Below are positions 2,543 to 13,066 of a DNA stretch of 64,000 nucleotides, one piece after another (positions within the stretch are counted from its first letter, which is position 1; the number at the start of each line of letters is the position of its first letter). The position numbers and the translations under genes were made by a program. The stretch spans positions 73,610 through 137,609 of the forward strand of contig JBEKJR010000008.1 in the NCBI GenBank assembly GCA_050011175.1. The letters are read 5' to 3'. This stretch comes from Terracidiphilus sp. (GTDB taxonomy: Bacteria; Acidobacteriota; Terriglobia; Terriglobales; Acidobacteriaceae). The notes below the pieces were generated by a model. It made no database searches, was not told where the DNA came from, and was given only the letters and a program-made list of their open reading frames with translations.

Positions 2543-2621
2543 TAAGAACTTGATCATGACTGGCACACACACCTGTAGGGTTTGAGTGGTTTTTTTGTCT
2601 TTATACTGTTACTCTCAAACT

Positions 2622-2888
2622 ATGCAGATCACCGTTCAACTTCCCGACGATCTGGTCCAGCACCCCAACCCAGGACGCGAGGCTCTGGAATCGCTGGCTA
2701 TAGAGGGATACCGCGCGGGAACGCTCTCTCATTTTCAGGCGAGCCAAGTGCTGGGAATGTCGCGTTTCGAGTTCGACAGCTTTCTCAAGGAGCGGCATAT
2801 CGACGACCACGCCTACGATGCGGATGACCTGGATGAGGATCGCAAGACCCTACGCGAACTCCAGGCCAAGGGACTTCTCCGGGCATGA
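2622..2888 (+). CDS. UPF0175-family protein, putative antitoxin
   Basis: MQITVQLPDD...LAIEGYRAGTLSHFQASQVLGMSRFEF; overlaps the downstream PIN-like gene. Confidence 0.8.
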   Translation: MQITVQLPDDLVQHPNPGREALESLAIEGYRAGTLSHFQASQVLGMSRFEFDSFLKERHIDDHAYDADDLDEDRKTLRELQAKGLLRA

Positions 2889-3367
2889 TCTTTGTTGCCG
2901 ACACTTCTCCCCTCAACTACCTGATTCAAATCGCTTGCGACAATCTCCTTCCTCAGCTTTACGGACGTATCGTTGTTCCCTCAGGGGTGATGAAGGAGTT
3001 GGGGCATCCTGGCGCCCCAGCGGCGGTGCGTGTGTGGCTGACGAAAGTTCCTGCCTGGATCGAGGTAAGCCTGACCAGTTCCTTGCCCAACGCAGAGCTT
3101 GCATTCTTGGGGCTAGGGGAACAAGAAGCAATTCAGCTTGCCGAAGAGCGACATGCAGACCTGCTGCTGATGGATGAACGCAAGGGACGCTTGGAAGCCA
3201 AGCGGCGCGGCCTCAGAACGACCGGAACGTTGGGCGTTTTGTTGAGTGCTGGAGAGTTGAGTTTGATTGAACCAGCGTCAGCCTATCGGCGGTTGCTCAC
3301 CGAGACCTCATTTCGCGCTTCTGCCGCACTGGAAGCGCATTTTCTACGGCAAATTAACACTAGATGA
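2885..3367 (+). CDS. DUF3368 PIN-like nuclease, putative toxin
   Basis: VADTSPLNYL, LGLGEQEAI, LLLMDERKGR and TTGTLGVL motifs. Confidence 0.85.
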   Translation: MIFVADTSPLNYLIQIACDNLLPQLYGRIVVPSGVMKELGHPGAPAAVRVWLTKVPAWIEVSLTSSLPNAELAFLGLGEQEAIQLAEERHADLLLMDERKGRLEAKRRGLRTTGTLGVLLSAGELSLIEPASAYRRLLTETSFRASAALEAHFLRQINTR

Positions 3368-3560
3368 TGAAATGTCGTGACTTTCCATCTAGGCTCCAAC
3401 AATGCAAACCACTGTGTAGAGGCCTGGCGCTAAACCCTATCAATGGAGTGCGTGAAATTGTGTAATCCGCGTAATCGCTTCATCGTTGAATTTGACAATC
3501 ATAAGATGGGGCAAACGATAATGCTGACACTGGGCAATGTCAGCATCACGGGAGTCCAGA

Positions 3561-4220
3561 ATGGATAAGAATCGGCCGAGTCGGCGGGATTTTCTGCTTG
3601 GTTTTCTGGTTGTGTTTTCGTTGTGCAGCGCCTGCCTGAACGTGATTCTGGTGTTGCACATATCCCACCCGACATTTTGGCGGGAATTCCAACTGAGCCG
3701 GCTTCACCCCGCGGCGATCAGCTCCAATGATCACGTTCGCGGCAGCGCGAATGCACCTATCACGGTGATTGAATACGCGGATTTTCAGTGTCCCTATTGC
3801 CGGCAGTTGCACGTTACGCTGCAGGCCGCGGCGAGCGAAGGAAAGATTCGCTGGGTGTACCGGGATTATCCGCTGTCCATGCACGAATTTGCTTTCAGGG
3901 AAGCTGAAGCCGCGCAATGCGCGGGGGCACAGGGGAAGTACTGGGAATTCGCAGATGCTCTTTATGCGAATCAGGCGGAAATTGTCTCATCGAAGGCCAT
4001 CGACCAGGAACTCAACACGTTGTCGCAAGCGGTACACGCCGATCCGGCCGCGTTGATGCAATGCATTCAATCCGCGCGGTTCAGAACGGTTGTTCAGGAC
4101 GAAGCAAACGAAGCTGATAAACTGCAAATTGCGGCGACTCCCACCATTTTCATCAACAACGAGCGGCATGAGGGGTCTGTGTCGTACAGTGAACTTATGA
4201 AGCTGATTGCAAATCATTAA
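3561..4220 (+). CDS. DsbA-family thiol-disulfide oxidoreductase with N-terminal anchor
   Basis: EYADFQCPYC active site, ATPT cis-Pro loop, N-terminal SRRDFLL plus hydrophobic stretch, GGAG RBS. Confidence 0.9.
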   Translation: MDKNRPSRRDFLLGFLVVFSLCSACLNVILVLHISHPTFWREFQLSRLHPAAISSNDHVRGSANAPITVIEYADFQCPYCRQLHVTLQAAASEGKIRWVYRDYPLSMHEFAFREAEAAQCAGAQGKYWEFADALYANQAEIVSSKAIDQELNTLSQAVHADPAALMQCIQSARFRTVVQDEANEADKLQIAATPTIFINNERHEGSVSYSELMKLIANH

Positions 4221-4246
4221 CCGTAAAAACAGAAGGCGAGGTCGAA

Positions 4247-4555
4247 ATGAAAAGTCAATGGATCATGCGGATTCTGGGCGGCGCCACGGCGTTGATTTTG
4301 GGCGTGATGGTCACGCTGGCGCTTGCGCAAACGGGGCTATTGAATGGGACTACAGCTCATGTCTATGCCAGTAATGGTTGCCCGGCGGGGATGCACGTCT
4401 GCGCGGACGACAAACACTGCTGTCCAGCAACGGCGGTATATGATTGCGTGGTCAACAGCTGCGACGCCAGCAAGAGCCGCACATGCTACACGAATACCGA
4501 CGATAATAACAAATACCTTTCACAGTGTTGCAGTCAGTTGATCAATTGCCCGTAG
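4247..4555 (+). CDS. Secreted cysteine-rich mini-protein (10 Cys)
   Basis: GAGG RBS, signal-peptide-like N-terminus, C-x6-C-x5-CC-x7-C-x4-C-x7-C-x13-CC-x5-C pattern. Confidence 0.75.
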   Translation: MKSQWIMRILGGATALILGVMVTLALAQTGLLNGTTAHVYASNGCPAGMHVCADDKHCCPATAVYDCVVNSCDASKSRTCYTNTDDNNKYLSQCCSQLINCP

Positions 4556-5045
4556 TCGCGCAGGAAGAGTGACTTTCCATCCAGGCGCCGACAATGCGAG
4601 CGGCTTCTTCAAGAAAGCTGCGGTCGGCCTCGGTGAAGGCGGCTGGGGTGTGGCTGTCGATGTCGATTTCGCCGACAACGCGGCCATGCGCGCGGATGGG
4701 GACGACAATCTCGGATTTTGTGCGGATGGAGCAGGAGAGATAGCGGGAGTCGGCGTTCACGTCGTCCACGACAACGGTCTCTCCGGTGGCCACAGCGGCA
4801 CCGCAGATGCCTTGCGTGACAGGGATGCGGATGTGCGGGGTGGGCTCGCCGACAAAGGCGCCCAGGAGCAGCGTCTGAGGGTCGCCGGGGTCGAGCATAT
4901 AGAAGCCGGTCCAGTTGTAATGGGGGAACCCGGCGGCGATGGCCGCGACGATGGCTTTCTCGAGGGCATCGAGAGAGGACGTAGTTGCGGTGAGTTCGCG
5001 GATGCGGGAGAGCAGGGAGAGCATCTGCGGGGTGAGGGCGGGCAT
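4542..5045 (-). CDS. GAF-domain protein, free methionine-R-sulfoxide reductase (MsrC-like)
   Basis: YNWTGFY, GICGAA and YLSCSIRTKSEIVVP motifs; start could be 5051. Confidence 0.8.
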   Translation of the reverse strand: MPALTPQMLSLLSRIRELTATTSSLDALEKAIVAAIAAGFPHYNWTGFYMLDPGDPQTLLLGAFVGEPTPHIRIPVTQGICGAAVATGETVVVDDVNADSRYLSCSIRTKSEIVVPIRAHGRVVGEIDIDSHTPAAFTEADRSFLEEAARIVGAWMESHSSCATTGN

Positions 5046-5157: not shown

Positions 5158-5272
5158 TAGAGCATTTTCACAGTTTCTGTGAGGCTGATTTTGTGGTTTC
5201 CCACCCATTTCACACAGAACGTGAAATGGATGGGGCACGGAGCTTCCTTACACTATCGGTGAAAATGCTCTA
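5158..5272. mobile_element. MITE-like element with perfect 14-bp terminal inverted repeats and an internal family A hairpin
   Basis: TAGAGCATTTTCAC ... GTGAAAATGCTCTA; near-identical copy at 12918-13066. Confidence 0.75.
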
Positions 5273-12917: not shown

Positions 12918-13066
12918 CAGAGCATTTGTGCAGTTTCCGTGAGGCTGATTTTGTGGTTTCCCACCCATTTCACACATTGGAATAAACCACAGGTCCTTCG
13001 ACTCGCTGCGCTCGCTCAGGAGGATGGGGCACGGAGCTTCCTTACACTATCGGCGAAAATGCTCTA
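12918..13066. mobile_element. Second MITE copy with a family C element nested in its hairpin loop
   Basis: Shares flanks with 5158-5272 and is 34 bp longer, with caggtccttcgactcgctgcgctcgctcagga inside; the right TIR supplies the TAG stop of the adjacent gene. Confidence 0.75.

Follow-up and report, generated by a model that had tools for sequence, protein, structure and literature searches.

A DsbA paralogue and a cysteine-rich mini-protein form a conserved, putatively dedicated two-gene unit in Acidobacteriaceae

The stretch of DNA considered here, hereafter the window, comprises 64,000 nucleotides of contig JBEKJR010000008.1 from Terracidiphilus sp. and carries two adjacent genes on its forward strand: a paralogue of dsbA (3561-4220, 219 aa) and, directly behind it, an open reading frame (ORF) for a mini-protein of 102 aa (4247-4555). 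From sequence comparison we consider it likely, with a probability of about 0.6, that this DsbA is dedicated to the oxidative folding of the co-encoded mini-protein, which would be a Sec-exported, disulfide-locked client, and that the two are inherited together as a unit. A preliminary description of the locus had proposed an accessory two-gene system of a DsbA and a cysteine-rich exported mini-protein; its linkage is indeed kept in at least five unrelated neighbourhoods, and export is predicted. The layout it gave, a DsbA with a CPYC active site and the motif S-R-R-D-F-L, followed 26 bp on by a 102-aa ORF with its own ribosome-binding site (RBS), can be read directly from the sequence, and its count of ten cysteines in the last 58 residues, with spacings of 6, 5, 0, 7, 4, 7, 13, 0 and 5 residues, agrees exactly.

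The mini-protein ORF is a real gene under constraint, since its ratio of nonsynonymous to synonymous substitutions (dN/dS) lies at 0.07-0.34, in the leader and the cysteine domain alike (pairwise, over five distinct orthologous DNA sequences), and its ten cysteines (residues 45, 52, 58, 59, 67, 72, 80, 94, 95 and 101) are retained in homologues; the selection acting on it is purifying, not diversifying. A word-indexed search recovers seven orthologues with 71-91% identity, in which each cysteine is invariant, and an exhaustive phmmer search over 1.84 billion representatives adds nine distant homologues of the C-terminal domain (29-53% identity), each with ten cysteines. The cysteine pattern of the preliminary description is in all conserved in 16 homologues, with identities down to 29%. 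The gap of 26 nt between the two genes (CCGTAAAAACAGAAGGCGAGGTCGAA) contains the RBS of the second (GAAGGCGAGG, 4232-4241), which ends 5 nt ahead of the ATG and whose GAGG is conserved in orthologues. The product divides into a leader (residues 1-27, 4247-4327), a conserved linker QTGLLNGTTAHVYASN (residues 28-43, 4328-4375) and the 10-Cys domain (residues 44-102, with the stop codon 4376-4555). No Pfam or NCBIfam model matches the mini-protein, searches of plasmid and phage collections return zero matches, and neither gene has a further paralogue within the window.

The leader, whose n-region has a charge of +2, whose h-region (ILGGATALILGVMVTLALA) is uncharged over 19 residues and which has A-L-A ahead of Q28, is probably a Sec-type signal peptide that would be cleaved near residue 27-29. 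It is also the signature of a family: a search with a profile of the leader yields about 45 clusters of peptides of 66-104 aa with 8- or 10-Cys cores. Their common leader reads M-x-x-R-W-x-x-R-I-x-G-G-x-A-A-L… (also written MxxRWLxRIxGG…SGILNG), has a net charge of +2 to +3 and about 19 uncharged residues in a row, and keeps R4, R8, G11, G12 and L16 nearly invariant among 37 family members. It ends in a signal-peptidase-I-type site, P-I-A-x-S↓G in most 8-Cys members and A-L-A↓Q in the window, which is followed by a G-I/L-L-N-G motif conserved across the whole leader family.

In all readable neighbourhoods of leader peptides, the gene lies 13-26 bp downstream of a DsbA of the same subclade as that of the window, or, in L103, overlaps its stop by 1 bp (linked cases: P0005, P0007, P0017, P0021 and P0037, and the ORFs in L020, L022 and L100-L104). 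Approached from the enzyme, the picture is the same: the relatives of the subclade that were examined (52-90% identity) have a leader-bearing, cysteine-rich ORF immediately downstream (from a 1-bp overlap with the stop to 26 bp) in all cases except L021. A scan of metagenomes with the DsbA profile gives five relatives with at least 53% identity, and all five are followed by a leader-type cysteine-rich ORF at gaps of -1 to 26 bp; for distant DsbA proteins (at most 42% identity) a comparable downstream ORF occurs at about 2 of some 125 evaluable loci, namely L077 only among genome loci and L171 only among the 70 evaluated metagenome loci. At both of these, an unrelated DsbA is followed by an unrelated ORF with a signal peptide and 7-8 cysteines (4689-4943 in L077, an Anaerolineales metagenome-assembled genome, MAG); the combination of DsbA and cysteine-rich mini-protein may have arisen more than once.

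The pair stands in an extracytoplasmic-function (ECF)-sigma/GAF context and in regions of the CHAT-protease, Sel1 and RES-Xre types, and L103 and L104 enter as separate contigs only; at least five unrelated neighbourhoods were counted. P0017 (73 aa) and P0021 (81 aa) have only the N-terminal 35 or so residues in common with the window protein, their C-termini being different and containing eight cysteines; their genes stand 13-14 bp behind dsbA in wholly different neighbourhoods, and the DsbA beside them has 54-61% identity to that of the window, its N-terminal RDFLxGFL…LN anchor included. The gene of P0037 lies 14 bp behind a subclade DsbA in yet a further context. Enzyme and leader also diverge together, the identities of the DsbA proteins and of the leaders being correlated with r = 0.91 over 28 locus pairs, which are not independent of each other. 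The short gaps in all loci imply that dsbA and the mini-gene are co-transcribed.

As judged from these alignments, the leader and not the cargo is the conserved part of the family, and we do not claim homology for the cores: at least three 8-Cys core types occur behind the family leader besides the 10-Cys domain, and an hhalign comparison of the 10-Cys domain with 8-Cys cores covers 13 columns around C-x5-CCP (E=1.3e-3, probability 19%). The mature parts show nine cysteine spacing patterns, eight of them even-numbered, and in 36 of 37 members their cysteine count is even (8 or 10), as full disulfide pairing would predict. With a leader that stays constant while the cargo changes, leader and DsbA may together serve as a platform for cysteine-rich cargo.

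The upstream gene clearly encodes a DsbA-family protein by profile comparison, with predicted oxidase activity. It matches Pfam Thioredoxin_4 (PF13462) with E=1.4e-33 and 116.9 bits (cut-off 23.2) over profile positions 4-163 of 165, and DSBA (PF01323) with E=1.5e-13 and 51.4 bits (cut-off 25.6); its CPYC active site occupies residues 77-80 (nt 3789-3800), and a cis-Pro-type loop, T193-P194-T195, is invariant in the subclade alignment. The ORF opens with MDKNRPSRRDFLLGF, the start codon at 3561 being favoured over an upstream ATG at 3537 because this start and its GGGAG RBS are conserved in orthologous loci. The best matches in the PDB are 3gyk ('27kDa outer membrane protein', 5.3e-12) and 4pwo/4pwp ('DsbA', about 1e-11), followed by Bacillus subtilis BdbD (3eu3, 9.2e-10); 4xvw ('DsbA-like protein'), 6nen ('Copper resistance protein') and 6mhh ('Metal resistance protein'), all of which we take to be ScsC-type proteins, match at 5e-4 to 8e-4. 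The nearest solved structures thus bear DsbA/BdbD-type names (about 1e-11 to 1e-9), well above the copper- and metal-resistance entries (about 5e-4). ScsC and DsbG likewise have CPYC in their active sites, and the motif by itself cannot tell oxidases from reductases of the ScsC/DsbG type; a weak match to the NCBIfam model for DsbG is present.

The motif S-R-R-D-F-L at residues 7-12 had been taken as twin-arginine-like, and export of the DsbA by the twin-arginine translocation (Tat) pathway does not survive comparison. Among 12 distinct N-termini of the subclade, the twin arginine is RR in eight, WR in two, KR in one and GR in one; its absence from four of 12 variants makes Tat export unlikely. 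What is invariant in these N-termini is R-D-F-L-x-G-F-L, the first part of the RDFLxGFL…LN anchor that is conserved across the subclade. It is part of a signal anchor at about residues 11-33, with a hydrophobic stretch of 22 residues and neither an AxA site nor another cleavage motif behind it; the whole looks like an ordinary N-in signal anchor.

For the 10-Cys domain, AlphaFold2 gives a confident prediction of a compact fold when run on a domain-only alignment with the distant homologues (predicted local distance difference test score, pLDDT, 94.0; predicted template-modelling score, pTM, 0.73); a run on the full-length protein with eight close orthologues is poor (pLDDT 54.8). The model has one helix, at domain residues 42-51, and five strands, at 6-8, 15-17, 20-27, 36-39 and 52-57. 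No solved relative of this predicted fold was found: Foldseek returns nothing significant from the PDB (best match NosL, E=0.89; TM-scores at most 0.44) and no significant match from BFVD, and a sequence-profile search of the PDB gives chance matches only (E>=0.5, all chains of NMDA receptors). Two histidines, H50 and H57, do not vary in the close 10-Cys orthologues.

The true homologues of the domain beyond these orthologues are proteins of about 180 aa with a DUF3624-like N-terminus (P0008, P0011-P0016, P0019 and P0020; P0059 is a long form with an 8-Cys core). This N-terminus consists of a CxxC motif and two helices, and in P0016 scores 34 bits on DUF3624 (cut-off 27); directly before a third hydrophobic helix follows an invariant S/T-R-R-x-hydrophobic-L, then an AxA-type site, then the domain, which is homologous to that of the window at 29-53% identity with all cysteines retained. 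The S/T-R-R motif is like the Tat motifs found inside membrane proteins that are inserted by both Sec and Tat, and it is a possibility that in these DUF3624-fused relatives the same domain may reach the periplasm by a second route, an internal twin-arginine helix with dual Sec/Tat insertion. The window protein, with a leader of only 27 residues, is not itself a member of DUF3624 (PF12292), the domain being present in the long forms. No DsbA is found near the unlinked cores in the readable loci of P0008, P0059 and P0064; in the 8-Cys peptide P0064, as in P0057, the core stands behind an unrelated signal peptide. At L184, 3856-6513, the gene of P0059 is convergent to a DoxX-HvfC-DUF692 (MbnB/TglH family) operon, which may be coincidence; operons of this type make metal-binding modified peptides.

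Other classes of small peptide fit less well. A double-glycine class II bacteriocin or microcin was rejected, as G11-G12 open the hydrophobic h-region instead of ending a hydrophilic leader, and no transporter or conserved third gene occurs in any context read. A precursor of a peptide that is ribosomally synthesized and then modified post-translationally (a RiPP, such as a lanthipeptide or a DUF692-modified peptide) was rejected as well, the DsbA being the only gene conserved with the peptide and the DUF692 operon standing beside one long-form homologue only.

The mechanism that we propose for the pair would begin with a bicistronic operon, transcribed from a promoter-like element upstream of dsbA and with an RBS for each gene. 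The N-terminal transmembrane anchor of the DsbA would place the enzyme on the outer face of the inner membrane; the mini-protein would be exported through its family-specific Sec-type leader, probably with cleavage near residue 27-29, and its C-terminal 58-residue domain would then be locked by five disulfides, introduced or proof-read by the co-encoded DsbA. The mature product would be a compact, very stable extracytoplasmic mini-protein, and the combination of DsbA and leader an export-and-folding platform for varied cargoes, be they 8-Cys cores or the 10-Cys domain. The mini-protein may act as an antimicrobial like the defensins, as an inhibitor or as a protective factor of the periplasm; a classical bacteriocin is less likely because no exporter, immunity or modification gene is conserved and because selection is purifying, which leaves as candidates a periplasmic or surface role as inhibitor, protective factor or metal binder. 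A bolder extension, which we hold to be rather doubtful, is that the cassette represents a hitherto overlooked route of Gram-negative soil bacteria to defensin-like disulfide mini-proteins without RiPP enzymes or an ABC exporter, in which the leader directs cargoes to a private oxidase, and that the 10-Cys domain is a new fold.

Several observations weigh against a dedicated enzyme-client pair. L021, an uncultured Acidobacteriaceae MAG, has a dsbA with 90% identity without the mini-gene, the 3' end of a GAF gene following directly after the dsbA stop codon (L021, 2606-2700), so the enzyme can persist without its mini-protein client. The unlinked long forms suggest that the domain is not strictly in need of a private DsbA; the h-region of 19 residues is long, and the leader could be an uncleaved anchor; and no outer-membrane exporter, immunity or maturation gene is conserved beside the pair in the contexts read, which makes a secreted toxin less plausible. 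The role of toxin, antimicrobial or signal given in the preliminary description finds no support in these contexts. As a natural presence/absence variant, L021 is itself useful for the dependence of mini-protein and dsbA on each other.

It is unlikely, in our estimate, that the two genes form a periplasmic metal-handling pair, consisting of a metallothionein-like binder or chaperone (for example of Cu) and a ScsC/DsbG-like thiol reductant or handler of metal damage. The 8-Cys cores, dense in CxC, CC and CxxC with eight cysteines per about 30 residues, would suit it, as would the invariant H50 and H57 of the 10-Cys type, the CPYC motif common to ScsC and DsbG, the weak matches to DsbG and to copper- and metal-resistance structures, and the long forms, whose S/T-R-R motif would suit Tat export of a pre-folded, cofactor-bound domain and one of which (P0059) adjoins the DUF692 operon; the best fold match, NosL, is a Cu chaperone, but at E=0.89 it is non-significant. 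The even cysteine count in nearly all members, however, is not required by metal ligation; the 10-Cys domain has a confident folded model, the top solved matches of the enzyme bear DsbA/BdbD names rather than those of copper or metal resistance, a DsbD/ScsB-type supplier of reductant is seen beside the pair in no locus, and the leader of the DsbA-linked forms is of the Sec type and lacks RR.

Less probable again is that the mini-protein is a membrane-tethered partner of the DsbA (a regulator, redox relay or specificity subunit), its uncleaved helix pairing with the DsbA anchor. For a signal peptide, the leader is conserved to an unusual degree at R4, R8, G11, G12 and L16, and it has a 19-residue hydrophobic stretch, the RDFLxGFL…LN anchor is itself conserved, DsbA and leader co-diverge tightly, and neighbours of dsbA are often redox partners, as in bdbC-bdbD and dsbL-dsbI; against this, the known re-oxidisers DsbB and VKOR are polytopic and quinone-binding, to which nothing here is comparable, in most members the signal-peptidase site is a textbook one, with Pro at -5, Ala at -3 and Ser at -1, and the same cores stand behind unrelated signal peptides in P0057 and P0064. 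That a lineage-specific DsbA merely adjoins an unrelated small secreted protein, with no functional tie, has in our view a slim chance. The retention of dsbA without the peptide gene in L021 would be expected of such neighbours, as would the cysteine-rich cores without a nearby DsbA in other architectures, and the 10-Cys orthologues all come from close genomes, where synteny alone would keep the adjacency; yet the adjacency survives moves into at least four other neighbourhoods and a change of cargo, the intergenic gaps are at most 26 bp, and low GC and low GC at third codon positions (GC3) are common to both genes.

A eukaryote-type cysteine-rich module acquired by horizontal transfer, such as granulin or the class A module of the low-density-lipoprotein (LDL) receptor, is effectively refuted. 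The resemblance to granulin/epithelin (PF00396) that the preliminary description had seen is real as far as it goes, comprising the motif C-x-D-x2-H-C-C-P-x(4-7)-C, whose xCxDxxHCCP segment is like the second half of the granulin motif, and a C-x6-C-x5-CC start; Pfam Granulin is the family most often touched, weakly, by the domain sequences (6 of 14, best 14.1 bits), the window sequence itself having no match. The scores of 7-14 bits fall short of the gathering score of 20.9 and cover HMM positions 21-41 only; the domain has ten cysteines with two CC pairs against 12 with four, its model contains an α-helix in place of an all-β stack of hairpins, and no granulin is among the 50 listed Foldseek matches in the PDB, all of which have E>=0.89. 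The likeness is a sub-threshold half-motif resemblance only. For the LDL-receptor module there is no match to Pfam Ldl_recept_a, and Foldseek matches have E>=2.9 only; P0018, an animal LDLa/CUB/MAM protease, reached E=4e-4 in phmmer summed over five repeats and was discarded, as were P0009 and P0010, repeat-driven artefacts of a low-complexity linker. The true homologues are all bacterial-type proteins from soil and peat metagenomes.

Among characterised systems, the proposed enzyme-client unit resembles the clusters of the glycocins sublancin and pallidocin, which carry their own thiol-disulfide oxidoreductases (BdbA/BdbB and PaldbA/PaldbB), in that a small exported cysteine peptide is encoded beside a private thioredoxin-like/Dsb enzyme, the presumed maker of its disulfides (PMC6405829). 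Glycocin clusters, however, belong to Gram-positive hosts and need a glycosyltransferase, an ABC exporter with a C39 peptidase, a DsbB-like partner and an immunity gene, and their peptides have a double-glycine leader and two disulfides; the present unit has two genes only, a Sec-type leader, 4-5 predicted disulfides and a diderm host, and is known from sequence alone. In enterobacteria, substrate-dedicated DsbA paralogues are DsbL/DsbI, with the arylsulfate sulfotransferase AssT, and the plasmid-borne SrgA, with the fimbrial subunit PefA. Here too an extra DsbA is encoded beside its one substrate, but clients of the AssT/PefA type are large enzymes or pilins with one or few disulfides, and DsbL has its own DsbB-type re-oxidiser, whereas the client proposed here is a family of mini-proteins with 8-10 cysteines and no re-oxidiser is linked. 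The membrane-anchored or lipoprotein DsbA-like oxidases of the Thioredoxin_4 group (B. subtilis BdbD, actinobacterial MdbA and Staphylococcus aureus DsbA) are among the best PDB matches of our protein, at about 1e-11 to 3e-5, and have the Pfam family, CxxC with T-cisPro and a membrane tether in common with it; these are general housekeeping oxidases, in contrast to a subclade whose GC content is below that of its surroundings and which goes with a single client family. The DUF3624-type fusions differ in having the CxxC two-helix N-terminus, the RR before the third helix and, in the contexts known, no adjacent DsbA.

Bacterial mini-proteins with four or five disulfides have, to our knowledge, rarely been described, and we found none from a Gram-negative host with a private folding catalyst; searches of the literature on DUF3624, on DsbA-linked bacterial disulfide-rich peptides and on acidobacterial cysteine-rich secreted proteins found nothing on this family. 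If the proposal holds, the leader peptides would constitute an uncharacterised family of about 45 sequence clusters for which our searches gave neither a Pfam or NCBIfam family nor a solved structure or a paper, and which includes a confidently predicted small fold without a solved relative. The pair would be a natural two-gene 'expression kit' that may serve the recombinant production of disulfide-rich peptides, and it offers a system for how a DsbA paralogue acquires client specificity; were it a metal-binding pair instead, the cassette would be a new periplasmic metal-buffering system. Since Acidobacteria are abundant in soil and peat and poorly understood, their secreted effector families are of ecological interest.

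The pair has a GC content of 53.8% against 59.9% for the whole window, which places it in the lowest 2% of 1-kb windows, and a GC3 of 0.62-0.67 against 0.75-0.86 in flanking core genes. The preliminary description had placed it in an AT-richer islet between a toxin-antitoxin (TA) pair and a miniature inverted-repeat transposable element (MITE); the low GC, the TA pair and a MITE-like element are all there, and what falls away is a mobile or recent islet. The pair is not a recent island because it is syntenic in relatives without the TA pair, and on these comparisons it appears low in GC yet old in the lineage, not newly arrived. Among GTDB species representatives, Terracidiphilus sp. SPRUCE 289 and two uncultured Acidobacteriaceae MAGs come closest (DsbA identity 86-90%), the remaining DsbA matches among the species representatives having at most 41% identity; NCBI places Terracidiphilus under Occallatibacter, family Acidobacteriaceae, and the subclade is, as far as these sequences indicate, confined to a few Acidobacteriaceae lineages.

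In relatives, the syntenic slot of the pair lies between a divergent ECF-sigma operon and a convergent GAF gene, which is followed by glgC. In the divergent operon, genes for an ECF sigma factor and an anti-sigma factor are joined by those for LiaF-like proteins and a DUF4097 protein, with LiaF-TM and DUF4097 domains; in the window, the counterpart of this operon on the reverse strand comprises the gene for the ECF sigma factor (1717-2442), divergent from dsbA in relatives without the TA insertion, an anti-sigma-like ORF (851-1717) with an H-x3-C-x2-C motif of the ZAS type, read by eye, and a membrane-protein ORF (81-881) of the same operon. The TA-like pair (2586-3367), upstream of dsbA, is made up of a UPF0175 gene at 2586-2888 and, overlapping it by 4 nt, a DUF3368/PIN-like gene at 2885-3367, both assigned by Pfam, and is an insertion specific to the window. 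The corresponding slot is empty in L005 and contains msrA, a PAF-AH gene and msrB in L001 and L021; given this variation among relatives, the interval from the ECF sigma gene to dsbA is an insertion hotspot.

Downstream, the GAF gene (4542-5045, reverse strand) is convergent to the mini-gene, whose stop it overlaps by 14 nt. Its product is homologous to free methionine-(R)-sulfoxide reductase (PDB 3mmh, 4e-22; YebR, 1vhm, 1.6e-18) and, with the msrA and msrB of relatives, lends the locus a flavour of thiol and redox repair. The GAF gene separates the pair from the MITE-like element (5158-5272), which has 27-nt terminal inverted repeats (TAGAGCATTTTCAC…) and a second copy in the window at about 12968-13066 with a 34-nt internal insertion. 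Between the GAF gene and glgC lies a gene for a secreted FecR-domain protein (5298 to about 6400, reverse strand), which is absent from L005. A direct repeat of 29 nt, identical at 26 positions, brackets the pair (3377-3405 and 4569-4597). Of its two copies, the downstream one is formed by the 3' end of the GAF gene, and the upstream one is a degenerate duplicate in which TGG has become TAG; a role as attachment sites was rejected, the upstream copy being missing from all relatives that carry the pair, and this copy is probably the scar of the rearrangement that brought the TA pair.

Upstream of dsbA, a promoter-like element on the forward strand (3492-3522) consists of TTGACA (3492-3497), a spacer of 19 nt and GATAAT (3517-3522); both hexamers and the intervening sequence are conserved in six orthologous loci, from which a promoter function is inferred. 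A scan for promoter and terminator consensus sequences was uninformative; it missed the element because of the 19-nt spacer, and the alignment revealed it. Between the -10-like box and the RBS lies a perfect 9-bp hairpin (ATGCTGACA / TGTCAGCAT, 3521-3546) with a loop of 8 nt, which is partly conserved in relatives, with no compensatory changes, and could be an operator or a structure of the 5' untranslated region.

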